Assembly (NCBI GenBank): GCA_049302065.1
Contig: JBAQLU010000126.1
Coordinates: forward strand, 7,475 to 71,474
From: Thermodesulfovibrionales bacterium
GTDB taxonomy: Bacteria > Nitrospirota > Thermodesulfovibrionia > Thermodesulfovibrionales > SM23-35
Direction of reading: 5' to 3'
DNA length: 64,000 nt
The stretch's first letter is position 1. Each line of letters starts with the position of its first letter. Made by a program: the position numbers and the translations under genes. Below the pieces are notes generated by a model. It worked only from the letters and a program-made list of their open reading frames with translations, was not told where the DNA came from and searched no databases. Below are positions 5,907 through 17,807 of this stretch, piece after piece.

Positions 5907-6011
5907 AACGCATACCTCCTTATAAAAGTCTATTATTTTAGCATTTTCTGTGATTTTTTCCATCTGTCCAGGGAATTAAGCAAAAGTTACATGAATCATA
6001 AATATTTTTTC

Positions 6012-6040
6012 TTGACATCAATTAACAAAATGGGTAAGTT
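6012..6040 (+). promoter_or_regulatory. putative sigma70-type promoter (TTGACA-17 nt-TAAGTT)
   Basis: TTGACA at 6012-6017 and TAAGTT at 6035-6040, 40 nt upstream of the fadL-like start. AAGGAGGGG RBS at 6066-6074. Confidence 0.4.
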
Positions 6041-6079
6041 ACGGAGCGAATAATATTTTTAAAAAAGGAGGGGAAAGGG

Positions 6080-7450
6080 ATGAAGAATCAATCCTTGTGC
6101 AAGTGGAGGGGTGGTATATTTTTTATTGTATGCATTTCTTTCATGTCCGCAAGTTCTGCGTTTGGTGCAGGGTTCGCACTTATAGAAAATGGTGTCAGCG
6201 GTCTGGGGAACGCTTACGCAGGAGGCGCTGCAAGCGCTGAGGATGCCTCGACAATATTTTATAATCCGGCAGGCATGACACGTCTGGAGGGAAAGCAGGT
6301 GATTGCCGGAGCACATATTATTATGCCGTCTGTTAAATTTAATAATGAGGGATCAACTCATGTTCTGCAGCCTTATACCGGAATCCCTCTCCAGGGTGGT
6401 AACGGTGGTGATAGCGGTGTCACAAAGGCTGTGCCGAATTTCTATTACACCAGGAAACTCAGTGACCGTTTTGCAGTCGGGCTTGGTGTGAGTGCGCCAT
6501 TCGGGCTTGCCACTGAGTATGACAAACACTGGGTTGGCCGCTACCATGCTATTGAATCAGATCTCCTTAGTGTTAATATAAACCCGTCAGTTGCGTACAA
6601 AGTAAATGATAATCTGAGTGTTGGCGCGGGTATCAGCGTACAGTACTTAAAAGCAAAACTTACCAATGCAATTGACTTCGGATCGCTTGATTTCCTGGGA
6701 AAACTCGGATTGCCTCCCCATGCGCTCGGTCTGACTCCTCAGGAAGCTGACGGTCATGCCGAACTTAATGGTGACAGCTGGGGCGTTGGCTATAACATCG
6801 GTTTTCTCTATGAATTTACAAAAAATACCCGTATGGGCATAGCATATCGTTCACGCATTGATCACACACTTGACGGCAGGGCTGAATTTTCCGGCGTCCC
6901 TCCCGGACTTGCCCCTGTCCCTGTATTCAAGGATACCGATGCCGAAGCTGAGATAACCGTGCCTGACAACCTTTCTATCAGCTTTTTCCATCAGATCAAT
7001 CCACAGTGGATGATCATGGCAGATTTTACATGGACAAACTGGCAGCTTTTTGAAGAGTTGAAAGTAAAGTTTGACAATCACGACCAGCCGGATGCTGTTA
7101 CTACTGAAAATTGGCAGGATAGTTATCGCACTTCGCTTGGTGTAACCTTTATGCCTGATAATAAATGGACATTCAGAGCCGGCACTGCCTATGATTCATC
7201 CGCAGTTTCTGATAAAAGATACCGGACGCCGCGTATACCGGACGGAGACCGTATCTGGGCAGCGTTAGGTATAGGGTACAAGTTTTCCAATATGTTCAAA
7301 GCTGATATCGCTTATGCTCACCTCTTCATCAATGACCCTGAGATCAGTCAATCTGTAGCTAACCCGGAAAACGCAATAAAAGGCGGTTTAAAAGGATATT
7401 ATGATGCACATATCAATATCGTGAGTGCTTCACTGACTCTGACATTTTAG
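6080..7450 (+). CDS. outer-membrane long-chain fatty acid/hydrophobic compound transporter (FadL/OmpP1/TodX family)
   Basis: 456 aa. Signal peptide, GAGFALIENGVSGLGNAYAGGAA N-terminal hatch motif, and a beta-barrel ending in F. Confidence 0.85.
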   Translation: MKNQSLCKWRGGIFFIVCISFMSASSAFGAGFALIENGVSGLGNAYAGGAASAEDASTIFYNPAGMTRLEGKQVIAGAHIIMPSVKFNNEGSTHVLQPYTGIPLQGGNGGDSGVTKAVPNFYYTRKLSDRFAVGLGVSAPFGLATEYDKHWVGRYHAIESDLLSVNINPSVAYKVNDNLSVGAGISVQYLKAKLTNAIDFGSLDFLGKLGLPPHALGLTPQEADGHAELNGDSWGVGYNIGFLYEFTKNTRMGIAYRSRIDHTLDGRAEFSGVPPGLAPVPVFKDTDAEAEITVPDNLSISFFHQINPQWMIMADFTWTNWQLFEELKVKFDNHDQPDAVTTENWQDSYRTSLGVTFMPDNKWTFRAGTAYDSSAVSDKRYRTPRIPDGDRIWAALGIGYKFSNMFKADIAYAHLFINDPEISQSVANPENAIKGGLKGYYDAHINIVSASLTLTF

Positions 7451-13019: not shown

Positions 13020-13454
13020 ATGTATCACATTACTGGCAAAATTTATGGACTTGAGCTTAAGAAAGAATCTAAGAAAGAATCTAAGAAAGAATCCTTAATG
13101 ATCTCCGTGCTGATCTCAGTTGATAAATCATTGGTCAAGAAAATTAATAAGAAATATTTTGTTCCTTTTGTTTTTAGCACTGCCAAGGCTGATGCTGAGG
13201 CTGAGGCTAAGGCTGATGCTGAGGCTAAGGCTGATCTTTTCGAAGTATCTAAAAGGGAAAATGAATATAGTTTAACTGTGCAAGAGGAGAAATATAGTTT
13301 GACTATTAATCTGGGTGAGAAGCATAGCAGCCTACTATCACAATCAAGCGTAATTGGCAAAACTGCGTCCATTATTTTCAACGGACCCATTAATAAGACC
13401 AATGATCTCGGAATTAATGAATCGAGTATCAAGAAATTCGTTATCACCGAATAA
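13020..13454 (+). CDS. hypothetical repeat-rich small protein (144 aa), no recognisable domain
   Basis: Strong SD (GGGGAGG) 7 nt upstream. Contains KKES x3 and AKADAEAE-type in-frame tandem repeats. Same strand as the SIR2-like gene and 33 nt upstream of it. Confidence 0.5.
   Translation: MYHITGKIYGLELKKESKKESKKESLMISVLISVDKSLVKKINKKYFVPFVFSTAKADAEAEAKADAEAKADLFEVSKRENEYSLTVQEEKYSLTINLGEKHSSLLSQSSVIGKTASIIFNGPINKTNDLGINESSIKKFVITE
13059..13094 (+). repeat. 12-nt tandem repeat AAGAAAGAATCT x3 (in frame, KKES x3)
   Basis: Read directly from the sequence. The third copy ends in CC. Confidence 0.85.
13183..13235 (+). repeat. about 18-nt tandem repeat GCTAAGGCTGATGCTGAG, about 3 copies (AKADAE)
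   Basis: Read directly from the sequence. Same AAGGCTGAG-type hexamer vocabulary as the intergenic hairpin at 21872-21934. Confidence 0.8.
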
Positions 13455-13487: not shown

Positions 13488-15215
13488 ATGGATAAGACAC
13501 TTATCATCGTCGGCGCTGGGATGTCAAAAAGCCTCGGGCTGCCCACCACCCCGGAAATTCACGAAATCTTGAGCATTCTTCTTGACGAGCAGTGTTGCAA
13601 GTCAAAGTCTCCTTCTTCTATCAGGCAGCGGCTTGATCACATAAATTCCAAAATGCCATTGGATGAGCCGGCAAGAAAAGACTTTGAAATGACTTTATCA
13701 TTGCTATTGGACGGTGACGGGGCACGGACGGAACAAGCTGCTGAAGAATGCCGCCAGCGCTCGCTGAACGAGTATTGTCTGCTGTACGATAAATACTTTC
13801 TGGATGGGAAAGTTGGCTCTTTCAGACATTATCTAAACCGCGTGTATCAAAAGTATTTGCTGATCGATCTCAAGGCGATAATGTGTTCATTGAAAGAGAG
13901 TTCTCCTGATGGGAAGATTGATCTCGTAAAAATACTGACCACTATTAATAATGCGATTGAATCAAACATTGCAATTCCGACAAAAGAGATTTTTCCAGAT
14001 GAAACAAAAGAAACCCTGCAACTTTATTATTGCGAAAGGGCCGACCTGGATGGCGCACTTAACATATACAGATTGCTTGTTTATAAACTTTTCAAGCATT
14101 TACTGAGAACCATGAATACATCACTGCTGAGCAGATACGAAGATTTTTTTTATCGGCTGGCAAAAGATTTCTCGGAACTTCAGACACTTAATGATGTGGG
14201 AAAATCTTTCCTTCGGGATAACTATCTTTCACCTTTTGCGTACCTTACATATAACTGGGACCCTGTTTTACCATTCCTCGGTATGAAAATGAATCAGAAA
14301 TTGAATAGAGAACTGCTTGAAAAAAGTCATGCCGGGACTTGCAAAAAGGTTTATATGGATTTTGGTTCTCCTTTTGCAGGGATAAAACTATCTGGTGAGC
14401 ATATGGAATCCGCGGTTTATTCCTTTAGCGAAGACGCAGCATTTCTCATTAATGCGTTTACGAAGGATTCCTATACAGAAAAATACACCGACGTAAAATC
14501 AAAAATCCTCATTAAAATTATTAAGCTATTTGTTCCGCATGGCCTTTGTAATATTCGGATTTGCCCACGTTGCCAAAATGGTTTCTTCATTTTCCCTGAA
14601 AACTTGGGCGAGATGGATTTTAGGTATATTTCCCGTTTATTTTGCTCAGACCCAATACCTTCCGAAGTAGATATGTCTTTTATTAAGGGTCCAGGCTACG
14701 AAAAAGTTAAACCGAAATATCTCAAGGGCTTGCCCGATGAACTTGACTGCCCGATATGTAAACACCCGGTATATTTTTCCAATTCTTTCATGGAAATACA
14801 GTCGATTATCAAACCGGAAAAACCAAGCACTGTGAACAAGATACATTTCGATTATGGTGATTTCTTCAGTCAGGCAAAACATGTTGTTTCGCTGGGATAC
14901 TCCTTTCCAAAGGATGATGTTATGAACAGTGTATATCTTCAGACAATGAGAATTCGGCAGGAGGAGTCAAATATTGCTGAAAAAGCAAAAGTGACTGCGG
15001 TTTTATTAAGCAGGAACCGAGATTTGCTTTTGAAGCCATGGTATTCAGTGAAAGAAACAATGAGGATATTAGGGGATAAGGATACCACCGGCACTCGCGA
15101 AACCATAGATGTTCTTAAAACATTTTTTAAAGTGGAAAACATAAGGCTGAATTTTATGGGATTTCCTTCAATACTTGATAATGTTGAGCTTAAAGATATT
15201 ATGATATATAAGTAA
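13488..15215 (+). CDS. SIR2-like (sirtuin-fold) protein with a 4-Cys zinc ribbon and an unassigned C-terminal region
   Basis: 575 aa. N-terminal LIIVGAGMSKSLGLPTT, LTYNWDP (TxNxD), VPHG followed by CPRC, a second CPIC pair, and LGYSFPKDD. Confidence 0.75.
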   Translation: MDKTLIIVGAGMSKSLGLPTTPEIHEILSILLDEQCCKSKSPSSIRQRLDHINSKMPLDEPARKDFEMTLSLLLDGDGARTEQAAEECRQRSLNEYCLLYDKYFLDGKVGSFRHYLNRVYQKYLLIDLKAIMCSLKESSPDGKIDLVKILTTINNAIESNIAIPTKEIFPDETKETLQLYYCERADLDGALNIYRLLVYKLFKHLLRTMNTSLLSRYEDFFYRLAKDFSELQTLNDVGKSFLRDNYLSPFAYLTYNWDPVLPFLGMKMNQKLNRELLEKSHAGTCKKVYMDFGSPFAGIKLSGEHMESAVYSFSEDAAFLINAFTKDSYTEKYTDVKSKILIKIIKLFVPHGLCNIRICPRCQNGFFIFPENLGEMDFRYISRLFCSDPIPSEVDMSFIKGPGYEKVKPKYLKGLPDELDCPICKHPVYFSNSFMEIQSIIKPEKPSTVNKIHFDYGDFFSQAKHVVSLGYSFPKDDVMNSVYLQTMRIRQEESNIAEKAKVTAVLLSRNRDLLLKPWYSVKETMRILGDKDTTGTRETIDVLKTFFKVENIRLNFMGFPSILDNVELKDIMIYK

Positions 15216-15360
15216 ACTCTTTCTACAAAGAATCCTGTTTACAGAAAGTGCAAAGGACTCTCCTTTCCCCAATCTAATAAGATGAGAATGTAGGCATAGG
15301 GGACGTTCTTAACTAATTGAACTATTGGGTTTTATACTTTTGGTATTTTAAGAAGAGGTA

Positions 15361-15487
15361 ATGGAAGGAATGACACGTCAAGCATGTCTATATGCACAGG
15401 GAACTCTCCATCACGTTATCGTTCGGTGGGATAGAAAAACGCACGATTGTCGCTGATGAAAAAGATCAAGAGGAATTTATACAATAG
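15361..15487 (+). pseudogene. remnant of a REP-associated tyrosine (IS200-like Y1) transposase N-terminus, frameshifted
   Basis: MEGMTRQACLYAQGTLHHVIVR continues in another frame as GIEKRTIVADEKDQEEFIQ*. This matches the usual RAYT start (R.A..Y..GT.HHV..RGIE.R.I..D..D...F). Confidence 0.5.
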
Positions 15488-15549
15488 AGAGAGCATGTAT
15501 GCAAATCTTTGATATAATAAAGTCAATTCAGGTTACAGGAGATAAAGCA

Positions 15550-15831
15550 ATGAGGGCCGTGAAACTAAAGGACAGCCTGTGTAAAGAAGCTGAAAGACTG
15601 TCAAGAAATCAGGGAACTAAGGTTGAAGAACTGATACCACGTGCCTTAAAGCACGGATTAAATGTGTTAAACGAAAAACAAGTCCTGGAATTGTATAAAG
15701 ACCGAAAGATAACCCTCCAGAAAGCTGCTGCTATGCTTTCTATAGACATATGGGAGATAATTGACAAAGTAAAAAAGGCGGACCTCCATATAGACTACAC
15801 AACTGAAGAACTGGCAGAGGATTTGAAGTAA
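15550..15831 (+). CDS. UPF0175-family antitoxin-like protein
   Basis: AGGAG lies 8 nt before ATG 15550. LELYKDRKITLQKAAAMLSIDIWEIIDKVKKADLHIDYTTEELAEDL matches the UPF0175 pattern. The track ORF starts at 15499. Confidence 0.7.
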   Translation: MRAVKLKDSLCKEAERLSRNQGTKVEELIPRALKHGLNVLNEKQVLELYKDRKITLQKAAAMLSIDIWEIIDKVKKADLHIDYTTEELAEDLK

Positions 15832-15938
15832 TGCGGGAGAAGGCTGTCTGCAATGCCTCTCCGCTGATGTTCCATGCAAATACAAATAATATCAAATTTC
15901 TCAGCGCATATGAACTTTTTATCCCCTCCCAACAATAG
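15831..15938 (+). pseudogene. truncated DUF3368 (PIN-like) toxin, 35 codons only
   Basis: MREKAVCNASPLMFHANTNNIKFLSAYELFIPSQQ* resembles the N-terminus of DUF3368 partners of UPF0175. It stops 3 nt before the next gene. Confidence 0.5.
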
Positions 15939-15941
15939 AAC

Positions 15942-16844
15942 ATGGAAAAATTGAATAACTATACCAAAATTCTTGCCTTCCCAATTCAGTCAGATAATTC
16001 AATTGTTAGCTATTCGACCCTGATGTGCGATTTCAATGACAGCTTATCCATAAATAATGAGCCTATACTGATTGATTGTGAAAACATCCAGTTCATAAAG
16101 CCGTTCGGTCTTAATCTTTTGGCTGCAATGATGTTTTATCACTTACAAAACGGAAACAAGGTGTTTATCAAAATACCCCTGGCCTCTGATGTCAGAAAAT
16201 ATTTGACTGACACGGGGTTTTTCCAGGAGTTTAGCATTGAACAGAATCAGGTGACATCTGCTCCGAGAAGCACATCGGTTGCTCTTAAAAGGCTTGAACA
16301 AGTAGATGGCACTTATCTTGATAACATCGCTCAGTGGATAAACTATAATGGTGATATTCCTCTAAGAGTCGCTCGGGATCTTGTATCCATAAGCCTCCTG
16401 GAAGCAATCAATAATGTGTTTGACCATAGTCACTCTCTAATAGGCTGTTATATTTCCGCACAGGCATACCACAAAGTAAAACAATTAACTCTTTCCATTC
16501 TTGACTTTGGGATAGGGCTTTTTAATTCTTTAAAACCTTTTTATCCAGACATTAGGGATGATTGCGACGCCATAAGCAAAGCAGTGTTGGAGGGCGTTTC
16601 GAGTAAGAGGAAAATAGAAAAAAGAGTCAGAGGAGTCGGGCTAACAAATATTAGCGGATTTTTATTAAATAGAGGTTCAATGGAAATAGTCTCCTATAAA
16701 GGATATTGGTATCAAAGACATGATGGAGTCATCGAAACGAAAACGCTCGTTTGTCCTTTGAAAGGAACCTGTGTTAATCTTTATATAGATAAGCAAAGTA
16801 TTATAGACATTGTTGAAATCGAAGAGGAAATATGGGGTGAATAA
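15942..16844 (+). CDS. GHKL-superfamily ATPase / anti-sigma-factor-like Ser/Thr kinase with an N-terminal STAS-like region
   Basis: 300 aa. N box LLEAINNVFDHS (about 16398-16434), G1 ILDFGIGL (about 16498-16520), G2 GVGLTNISGF (about 16630-16660). The N-terminal IDCENIQFIKPFGLNLLAAM resembles STAS. Confidence 0.7.
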   Translation: MEKLNNYTKILAFPIQSDNSIVSYSTLMCDFNDSLSINNEPILIDCENIQFIKPFGLNLLAAMMFYHLQNGNKVFIKIPLASDVRKYLTDTGFFQEFSIEQNQVTSAPRSTSVALKRLEQVDGTYLDNIAQWINYNGDIPLRVARDLVSISLLEAINNVFDHSHSLIGCYISAQAYHKVKQLTLSILDFGIGLFNSLKPFYPDIRDDCDAISKAVLEGVSSKRKIEKRVRGVGLTNISGFLLNRGSMEIVSYKGYWYQRHDGVIETKTLVCPLKGTCVNLYIDKQSIIDIVEIEEEIWGE

Positions 16845-17180
16845 ATGGAAATTTTGAGAGTAAAAGAACTCATAGGTGAGAAATGCACTGGCTACGATGA
16901 CGGGAAGAGGCTATTCACTCTTATTGATTCCTTATTGGCAAAGGGACCCTCAGTCAAGATAGATATGAACGGTGTAACTTTTACATCTTCGTCCTTTTAT
17001 AACGCCGCCTTTGGCGAGCTTGTATTAAAATATGGCGTGCCTTTCTTAAAAGAGAAACTTAAGTTTGATAATCTGTCAAACAAGGATAAGTTTCTTTTGT
17101 CTAAAAGCATATCGCTTGCAAAAAAAGTTAAAGAAGAGTCAATTTCAGATTTTTCAAAAACAACTCCTGCTGCAATTTAG
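16845..17180 (+). CDS. STAS-like domain protein (DUF4325 family)
   Basis: 111 aa. The start abuts the upstream stop (TAAATG). VKIDMNGVTFTSSSFYNAAFGEL resembles the STAS/SpoIIAA phospho-acceptor segment (D..GV.F.DSSG). Confidence 0.6.
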   Translation: MEILRVKELIGEKCTGYDDGKRLFTLIDSLLAKGPSVKIDMNGVTFTSSSFYNAAFGELVLKYGVPFLKEKLKFDNLSNKDKFLLSKSISLAKKVKEESISDFSKTTPAAI

Positions 17181-17220
17181 CATAGAAATAGGAATTGATG
17201 GTACGATCCCAGCTAACCAA

Positions 17221-17337
17221 CTATCCTTTCCTCACCCTCTCCACAAAGGCATTGACATCCCTGATCTTAACAACGTGGAAGGGCTTCAGGTTTTTCAGGT
17301 GAGGGTCTCTTGAGACGATGCTGGCAACAGGGTACGG
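17221..17337 (-). pseudogene. C-terminal remnant of a PIN-family toxin (no start codon)
   Basis: The reverse frame reads PYPVASIVSRDPHLKNLKPFHVVKIRDVNAFVERVRKG*, like the ..IVS.D.HLL.L..F.GI.I..P.EF.. end of PIN toxins. An upstream in-frame stop lies at 17338-17340. Confidence 0.4.
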
Positions 17338-17360
17338 TTAATATACTGTGACACTCTAAA

Positions 17361-17807
17361 CTATTTTGACAGGATATTTTTTGCAGCGCGCAGGGCGAGG
17401 AGGTAACTGTCGGGACCAAATCCGCTTATCTGTCCGACAGCAACTCCAGCTATAAAAGACTTCTGCCTGAACTCCTCACGCTTGTGGATATTGGATAAAT
17501 GCACTTCTATGGCCGGCCTCTCAACTCCTGCAATTGCATCCCTTATCGCTACACTCGTGTGGGTATATGCAGCAGGGTTTATGATCAAGACATCATAGTC
17601 GGCTTTTTGAATAATATCCAGTATCTCTCCTTCGCTGTTCAGCTGTATAACCTTAACATCAATGCCGAGTTCTGATGCAAGAAGAGAGATATCTTTATTT
17701 ATATCCTTGAGAGATTTGGCGCCATAAATATTTTTTTCTCTTTTGCCGAGCAGGTTCAGATTAGGGCCATGGATGACCAAGACCTTCTTTGATTGAAGAA
17801 TTCTCAA
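17361..17807 (-). CDS. aroQ: type II 3-dehydroquinate dehydratase
   Basis: 148 aa. [30 protein letters not shown], and [14 protein letters not shown]. Confidence 0.9.

Follow-up and report, generated by a model that had tools for sequence, protein, structure and literature searches.

A VapK/VapS-type gene pair without toxin or helix-turn-helix domain in a variable toxin-antitoxin island of a Thermodesulfovibrionales bacterium

A 64,000-nt stretch of Thermodesulfovibrionales DNA (contig JBAQLU010000126.1; the whole stretch is hereafter the window) carries, at positions 15942-17180, two abutting genes that we call K and S, which lie between fragments of two PIN-type toxin genes. The question that this locus raises is what such a pair does. 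The initial annotation, made from the letters alone, described a GHKL ATPase or kinase and a STAS-like partner inserted as mobile cargo into a broken toxin-antitoxin (TA) locus, and proposed an uncharacterized conflict or abortive-infection module, or a regulator of a neighboring SIR2 effector, in preference to a classical sigma-factor switch. We put at roughly 60% the probability that K-S is a minimal two-gene member of the CapK/CapS-VapK/VapS family, composed of a STAS-GHKL serine kinase and a STAS substrate of ~100 amino acids (aa).

K and S as relatives of VapK and VapS

The two genes and the codons on which the argument turns are the following.

15942-16844, + strand: K, 300 aa; VapK/CapK-like, with an N-terminal STAS region (residues ~8-102) and a GHKL kinase/ATPase region (~120-285).
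16092-16094, + strand: codon of F51 in K.
16413-16415, + strand: codon of the N-box residue N158 in K.
16845-17180, + strand: S, 111 aa; VapS-like STAS-only protein (DUF4325).
16989-16991, + strand: codon of Ser49 in S, the predicted phosphoacceptor.

A search of S against all PDB chains returned Escherichia VapS (9z7o) as the sole significant match (E 1.6e-7, residues 5-98). With the vapK-vapS-vapC operon of Rahnella bruchi (L013) as the comparison operon, S is 38% identical to VapS over residues 1-77 (E 4e-15), and K aligns collinearly with VapK (residues 24-280 against 22-281, 24% identity, E 3e-15 in blastp). The residues that matter in the known system are kept. F54 of Escherichia VapK, the Phe of its predicted single-stranded DNA (ssDNA) site, is the Phe of CRFLRP according to the AlphaFold 3 input file in the supplement of the paper describing it (PMC13373217). 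It aligns with F51 of the window K (in QFIKP), a residue that does not vary within the close clade and whose column is aromatic in most of 68 distant homologs; N158 is likewise invariant in the close clade. On the substrate side, Ser49 of S aligns with S48 of VapS, in a column where 68 of 71 S proteins have Ser or Thr. Because S and K match VapS and VapK and the key residues are retained, we assign the pair to the CapK/CapS-VapK/VapS family; judged by sequence, K-S is a homolog of VapK/VapS and CapK/CapS and not a novel type of system.

Both open reading frames (ORFs) are present as first described, including bases 16971-16997 of S, which encode GVTFTSSSF, and the TAA of K, which directly abuts the ATG of S (K gene first, zero spacer). 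The Bergerat boxes of K (E154, N158, D161, and H162 in EAINNVFDH; D188, G190, and G192 in DFGIGL; G231, G233, and L234 in GVGLTN) do not vary among 15 aligned close homologs, and most of these positions are still invariant across 68 distant sequences of ~25% identity. An AlphaFold2 model of K (predicted local distance difference test score, pLDDT, 84; predicted template modeling score 0.85) matched the GHKL N-domains of Hsp90, TRAP1, and GyrB in Foldseek at E ~1e-5, and homologs of K have precomputed matches to PF02518 and PF01740. These homolog matches, together with the invariant motifs and the model, are the reason that we take K to be a two-domain protein (STAS plus GHKL), as the initial annotation had it. 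Of the profile matches that it anticipated, DUF4325 was recovered in S (PF14213, STAS-like; E 3.8e-12, 46.2 bits against a gathering cutoff of 23), but HATPase stayed below threshold in K searched alone (HATPase_c_2, E 0.3), as did STAS (residues 8-102, E 0.002). Neither K nor S matched a helix-turn-helix (HTH) family in Pfam or NCBIfam.

The suggested likeness of the TSSS region of S to a STAS acceptor loop was upheld. In an AlphaFold2 model of S (pLDDT 85), helix α2 begins with Ser49, at the canonical acceptor position of STAS proteins. The STAS domain of K has an invariant Pro (P54) at the position equivalent to the acceptor Ser, with the motifs compared by eye (IDCENIQFIKPFG in K, IDMNGVTFTSSSF in S), and this substitution fits a sensor domain that would be refractory to phosphorylation.

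The family was described by Chambers, Rani, Min, Villa, and Corbett (bioRxiv February 2026, EMBO J June 2026; PMC13373217; PDB 9z7o). CapK, an HTH-STAS-GHKL kinase activated by ssDNA, phosphorylates CapS at S54 after mitomycin C, and the CapKS switch derepresses adjoining immune operons (CBASS, Bub, and Thoeris) (PMC13373217). In VapKSC, the proposed phosphorylation target of VapK (STAS-GHKL) is Ser48 of VapS, a STAS antitoxin that then lets go of the PIN toxin VapC; this operon protects Escherichia coli ~100-fold against phage Bas42, and protection is lost with VapS S48A, VapK F54A, or VapC D28A, each alone (PMC13373217). The mutant phenotypes of VapS S48E, VapS S48A, and VapK F54A back the CapK-type scheme for VapKSC, and deletion of VapS residues 94-116 abolishes antitoxin activity (PMC13373217). 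The earlier proposal of an uncharacterized conflict or abortive-infection module was therefore right in part: the family is conflict-related, as the action of VapKSC on Bas42 and the operons under CapKS control attest, but, having been published in 2026, it is not uncharacterized.

By analogy with CapK and VapK, we infer kinase activity, activation by ssDNA, and phosphorylation of Ser49 for the pair in the window. ssDNA arising from DNA damage or phage infection would bind K at the STAS/GHKL interface, around F51; activated K would phosphorylate S at Ser49, at the start of helix α2; and phosphorylation would alter the binding partner of S, as in a partner switch. The output might then come from S or K acting on an unlinked partner, or from K as the effector itself, restrained by S in an anti-sigma-like logic. 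The two genes travel as a 1.25-kb cassette, which in this genome has taken the place of the 3′ end of a DUF3368 toxin gene, within a small and variable stretch of TA remnants beside aroQ.

A GHKL domain next to a STAS protein with Ser at the start of helix α2 is also what a classical SpoIIAB/RsbW and SpoIIAA/RsbV partner switch would look like, in this case for a sigma factor encoded elsewhere, and the STAS region of K gave a weak NCBIfam anti-sigma-antagonist match (E 0.0085, far under the cutoff). The initial annotation had doubted this explanation, and the data agree with that doubt. The right-hand neighbors in the window are aroQ, a Roadblock/LC7-like gene (E 0.006, under the cutoff), a TPR protein gene, coaBC, rpoZ, gmk, remA, and yicC, and no sigma-factor or PP2C gene is among the window neighbors of K-S. 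Nor is there one, upstream or downstream, among the 25 listed Pfam families that occur in at least two of 64 loci, a tally in which singletons may be missed. K has an extra N-terminal STAS domain like that of CapK and VapK, unlike the anti-sigma kinases of ~145 aa, and SpoIIAA-type chains appeared in the PDB search only at E >1 and only with the STAS region of K. The pair is moreover mobile, and viral contigs, many of them prophage-sized, carry it too. We consider a classical sigma-factor switch very unlikely.

A mobile cassette in a broken toxin-antitoxin locus

The surroundings of K-S contain the following features.

13488-15215, + strand: 575-aa "SIR2-like" gene; PADLOC SIR2 match at E 0.04 over 38 residues (2-39).
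15291-17361: variable-island block, 98% identical to contigs L094, L095, and L096; holds the TA remnants and K-S.
15528-16811: segment missing in L094-L096, a 1.28-kb deletion (junction read directly; blastn coordinates).
15550-15831, + strand: UPF0175-family antitoxin gene, 93 aa from the ATG at 15550, with the ORF open from 15499; PF03683, E 1.5e-10.
15831-15938, + strand: stub of a DUF3368/COG2405 PIN-like toxin gene, N-terminal 35 codons; its TAG stop is supplied by the left end of the cassette.
15932-17185, + strand: K-S cassette, from 10 nt before the ATG of K to 5 nt past the stop of S; defined by homology to L097.
~17221-17337, - strand: C-terminal remnant of a PIN_3 toxin gene, ~32-38 codons plus stop; begins ~40 nt past the stop of S.

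A 92%-identical copy of the pair in L097 shares only 15932-17185 with the window, and both flanks are unrelated. Because nothing beyond this segment is shared, K-S moves as a unit, a cassette of 1.25 kb; copies at 76-80% identity lie in still other contexts. The left end of the cassette falls inside a toxin gene. The stub is 59-66% identical to the N-termini of intact DUF3368 proteins over 32-34 residues (E ~1e-12; phmmer 3e-9), and the toxin is cut after codon 33-34, compared with intact versions of 122 and 167 aa in L109 and L114. In L109, L111, and L114 an intact DUF3368 gene directly follows a UPF0175 gene that is 85-90% identical to that of the window, and L114 also shares the TPR-coaBC-rpoZ-gmk neighborhood. 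As DNA homology to the intact loci ends, and homology to L097 begins, at 15932, the 1.25-kb cassette replaced the remainder of the DUF3368 toxin gene. With its partner toxin truncated, the UPF0175 antitoxin, whose 41 homologs are all ~93 aa, has become an orphan.

On the other side, the opposite-strand remnant corresponds to the C-terminal end of the 143-aa PIN_3 toxins of L109, L112, and L113 (75% identity over 32 residues; E 5e-14; phmmer 8e-12), with DNA identity of 78-79% over 17220-17319; aroQ ends at 17361, and the N-terminal part of the toxin gene is accordingly lacking. It took the neighbors of UPF0175 homologs to identify stub and remnant; used as queries themselves, the 35-aa and 38-aa peptides gave no match in Pfam, the PDB, or local searches. 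A tblastn search of UPF0175 against plasmids also gave none. The truncated DUF3368 toxin, the PIN remnant, the interruption of a TA locus, and the mobility of the pair, all read from a single sequence in the initial annotation, are thereby borne out by comparison with other loci.

The same base, immediately after TTCCCAA at DUF3368 codon 33-34, is a breakpoint in the window (15932/15933), L109 (3383/3384), L110 (841/842), and L097 (2543). Three states occur there: an intact toxin (L109, L111, and L114), a 299-nt deletion (L110, L112, and L113), and K-S (the window). Such reuse of one position hints at a hotspot of recombination or a process specific to this site; neither a recombinase nor a repeat was found for the breakpoint. 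Around the cassette, no direct or inverted repeats and no promoter or terminator signals rise above chance. Immediately downstream of the DUF3368 site, L110 (885-925) and L109 (3726-3766) contain a perfect palindrome of 41 nt (AATTTTGTCAAATTGAAAGTACAATTTTCAATTTGACAAAA-like).

The island around the cassette is highly dynamic. L094-L096 match the window over 15291-15527 and 16799-17361, their left flanks all differ before 15291, and only L095 continues into aroQ, the other two having a response-regulator gene from 17361 on. The junction of the 1.28-kb deletion between the two matching parts shows a short imperfect microhomology. Across the Nitrospirota clade, K-S and UPF0175 loci repeatedly lie beside TA pairs (HEPN with MNT, MazE, and HTH_3 with PIN_3; L098-L103, L003/L004, and L109/L112/L113), a recurrence that suggests shared hotspots for TA and other cargo.

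Contigs L094-L096 also bear on the suggestion that K-S regulates the 575-aa "SIR2-like" gene, as CapK-CapS does adjoining immune operons. That gene is on the same strand, 0.7 kb upstream of K-S; it has the weak PADLOC match listed above; and control of adjoining operons is known for CapKS. It lies, however, upstream and not downstream, with the UPF0175 locus in between and the cassette boundary at 15932, and it is absent from every other K-S locus and from the 98%-identical contigs, whose homology begins at 15291. Because the left flanks of these contigs differ before that point, the gene is not part of the cassette or island unit. Its product has no Pfam, NCBIfam, or PDB sequence match, and S has no HTH or winged HTH (wHTH) domain. 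We give this proposal hardly any credence, and the initial annotation did not hold on this point. A 579-aa gene beside K-S in L003/L004 was considered as a relative of the 575-aa gene and rejected, the two not being homologous. A 144-aa low-complexity ORF at 13020-13454, with KESKKESKKES and AKADAEAEAKADAEAKAD runs and a 12-nt tandem repeat at 13182-13229, may not be a real gene.

The two-gene layout and the output of K-S

Both outputs known for the family are missing at this locus. The stop of S is separated from the convergent aroQ by only 180 nt, and a Rahnella VapC query (tblastn, phmmer) found nothing in the 64-kb window. No VapC homolog occurred in 93 genome and metagenome loci, the Rahnella operon itself excepted; among 70 viral loci screened with PIN queries, one gave a PIN-like match, the nature of which was not examined. 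VapS has 23 residues past the alignment column of residue K94 of S, compared with 0-11 in most two-gene S proteins; S proteins of the window subclade have 17-18, which are nonconserved and of low pLDDT. S proteins end 2-18 residues beyond the last STAS helix. Alignment and model thus indicate that S is without a conserved C-terminal extension or VapS-type inhibitory helix. With the VapC toxin and the DNA-binding domain both absent, the output of K-S must be something else. The locus is a toxin-less, HTH-less VapK/VapS-type pair, a third form beside those with wHTH-repressor and PIN-toxin outputs.

The layout of PIN gene fragments on both sides of a pair whose S lacks the VapC-blocking tail would also be expected of a decaying, functionless leftover of VapKSC that lost vapC, and K is deleted in three near-identical contigs and degraded in L012. 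The flanking fragments, however, are DUF3368 and PIN_3, from TA pairs of their own, and not VapC, and both ORFs are intact in the window. In its close relatives (L001-L012, L014, and L097-L103; ~20 Nitrospirota metagenome-assembled genomes and metagenome contigs), K is followed by S with no PIN gene, in contexts that all differ (yjbQ, ispG, rpsT, mtnA with a patatin gene, a transposase, a HEPN-MNT pair, and ABC transporter genes). Among these copies without a PIN gene, K has a ratio of nonsynonymous to synonymous substitution rates (dN/dS) of 0.10-0.25 and S one of 0.07-0.13, the latter at two informative comparisons; in a third (L010 with L011) the S proteins are identical and give no ratio. 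K-S is under purifying selection. Because the relatives keep the same two-gene layout at dN/dS of 0.07-0.25, the two-gene state is not local decay, and its recurrence in distant phyla and viral contigs also speaks against a leftover. We judge that explanation improbable.

The two-gene form appears to be widespread. An exhaustive profile search yielded K-like proteins in 6758 clusters (50% identity), almost all of them ~290-300 aa long. In 79 genome loci of a distant K subfamily (Bacillota, Alphaproteobacteria, Streptococcus, and others), an S of 94-103 aa directly follows K in 65, and neither a recurrent third gene nor a VapC homolog was found. A full-length K-like protein without a recognizable S gene behind it is encoded in the other 14 (L034, L036, L042, L043, L046, L049, L053, L056, L060, L067, L069, L080, L081, and L087), of which L069 is uninformative for S because the contig stops inside K. 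K was also present on 70 IMG/VR viral contigs (L115-L184), with an S of 95-103 aa directly after it in 57, although no relative of the window's own K-S clade was found there. In 52 of the 70, K is at most 3 kb from a contig end, mostly on the S side, which is typical of prophage cargo beside attachment sites; the provirus boundaries are predictions.

Some of these distant pairs lie next to restriction-modification (RM) genes. In six Streptococcus species (L074-L078 and L083), a type I RM operon (hsdR-hsdM-hsdS) is directly upstream of K-S with a 20-nt gap; K-S comes after a type IIG RM gene in L033 and after a gene for an HKD-SNF2 helicase in L088. Other neighbors in the broad set are integrases, phage lysins, HTH_3 with Peptidase_M78 pairs, and YolD and IMS family genes. 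The RM adjacency may reflect a link between DNA-damage sensing and restriction control. Membership of K-S in the MADS system was considered and rejected: neighbors match the mad1, mad2, mad3, mad5, and mad8 models, of which the two traced to their genes, mad2 and mad5, fall on RM methylase and specificity genes, and K and S themselves match no mad model. The PADLOC DrmA model PDLC02567 (1750 positions) matches the window K at 36-264 and the window S at 337-381, and from these alignments some DISARM DrmA helicases seem to have a fused K-S-like N-terminal module.

What, then, could the output be? One tentative answer, which we think has a limited chance of being right, is that two-gene K-S pairs work autonomously as switches, sensing DNA damage or phage infection, with an output that is not encoded beside them: K may act as an effector that, in the manner of an anti-sigma factor, seizes a host or phage protein, or S and its phosphorylated form may act on a conserved cellular target. 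A possible example of the latter is restriction being switched off after DNA damage where K-S trails a type I RM operon.

Rather doubtful, in our estimate, is the narrower proposal that K-S is a self-contained two-gene TA or abortive-infection module, in which K is an effector that sequesters or phosphorylates a host target, much as anti-sigma kinases bind sigma factors, unphosphorylated S restrains K, and ssDNA-triggered phosphorylation of S frees it. K and S form a compact, translationally coupled pair, no effector is linked to it over >120 loci, and S has no output region of any kind. The natural deletion drops K and spares S, as expected if losing S alone is harmful, and TA-rich hotspots and proximity to viral-contig ends would fit prophage-end cargo. 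The loci that have K without S are hard to square with a K that is toxic unless restrained by S, and in VapKSC the toxic part is VapC, not VapK. A K-effector module may in any case be one answer to the output question and not a full alternative to a minimal two-gene family member.

Several points weigh against reading K-S as such a member. VapK, reported as insoluble, was never assayed in vitro (PMC13373217), and kinase activity, ssDNA sensing, and Ser49 phosphorylation in two-gene pairs are extrapolations across 24-38% identity. Foldseek places the model of K closer to Hsp90 and GyrB ATPases than to SpoIIAB-type kinases, which makes an ATPase role for K possible, and the model of S drew no significant match, STAS domains being among its weak top matches (best E 0.09), in a library that probably predates 9z7o. 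The deletion in L094-L096, which come from different metagenomes, removes the UPF0175 gene, the stub, and almost all of K and leaves S intact. In L012, a third Nitrospirales genome, K is degraded to residues 162-294 (6001-6387), in the same scan that found intact K-S in L010 and L011. K-S is accordingly dispensable and often lost. Finally, the broad surveys cover one K subfamily picked by search patterns and not a random sample of the 6758 clusters. As a separate observation, the ORFs on either side of the K remnant in L012 resemble those flanking K-S in L011 by appearance, without alignment.

Descriptions of the CapK/VapK family date from 2026 and cover two outputs alone, a wHTH repressor and a PIN toxin. 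Here the same sensor kinase and phosphoacceptor STAS protein occur with no visible output, in a form that is conserved, under purifying selection, mobile, and common in other phyla and on viral contigs. If these pairs are autonomous switches, VapKSC and CapKS would be specialized branches of a far larger, uncharacterized family, to which the 6758 clusters and the copies on viral contigs belong. Identifying the target of K-S would test ssDNA-sensing kinase-STAS pairs as a general switch in stress and immunity, and could also explain the DNA-damage response of some restriction systems or prophages. For annotation, DUF4325 genes and their 300-aa "hypothetical" upstream partners gain a concrete, testable assignment.

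Comparison with known systems

With SpoIIAB-SpoIIAA and RsbW-RsbV, K-S shares the Bergerat-fold kinase domain and a STAS partner with its acceptor Ser at the N-terminus of helix α2. It differs in that no sigma factor or PP2C phosphatase is nearby, in that K has a STAS domain of its own with Pro at the acceptor position and is 300 aa long compared with ~145 aa, and in its mobility, which extends to viral contigs.

CapK-CapS has in common with K-S a GHKL kinase and a STAS substrate with a conserved Ser. Some pairs of the wider two-gene family lie directly downstream of RM genes, as the paper reports for 88 of 443 capKS loci. Unlike CapK, the window K has no N-terminal HTH and begins directly with its STAS region, and S has no C-terminal wHTH, which excludes for S the role of CapS as a repressor that binds DNA. 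No immune operon lies downstream of K-S, the next gene being the convergent aroQ, and in close relatives the downstream genes are unrelated.

Two published records touch on the same genes. An earlier bioinformatic record tied DUF4325 genes to PIN toxins, which is the vapS-vapC link; the window has no PIN.4/VapC gene and only the DUF3368 and PIN_3 remnants. In the Francisella prophage vB_FhiM_KIRK (PMC7924643), a 293-aa hypothetical protein followed by a 112-aa DUF4325 protein (Fhv_0046/Fhv_0047) lies between a CI repressor and an integrase; gene sizes and order fit a two-gene K-S, a likeness drawn from annotation alone, without sequence comparison.

The differences from VapKSC are that no vapC follows S, occurs elsewhere in the window, or is present in any close relative, that S has no counterpart of the VapS residues 94-116 needed to neutralize VapC, and that identity is low, at 24% for K and 38% for S. 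The likenesses run through both proteins: K has the architecture of VapK (STAS plus GHKL, without HTH, ~300 aa) and aligns with it end to end, the ssDNA-site Phe (F54 in VapK, F51 in the window) and the N-box Asn are retained, S is homologous to VapS and keeps the conserved Ser (S48 in VapS, S49 in the window), and translational coupling links the K gene to the S gene behind it.

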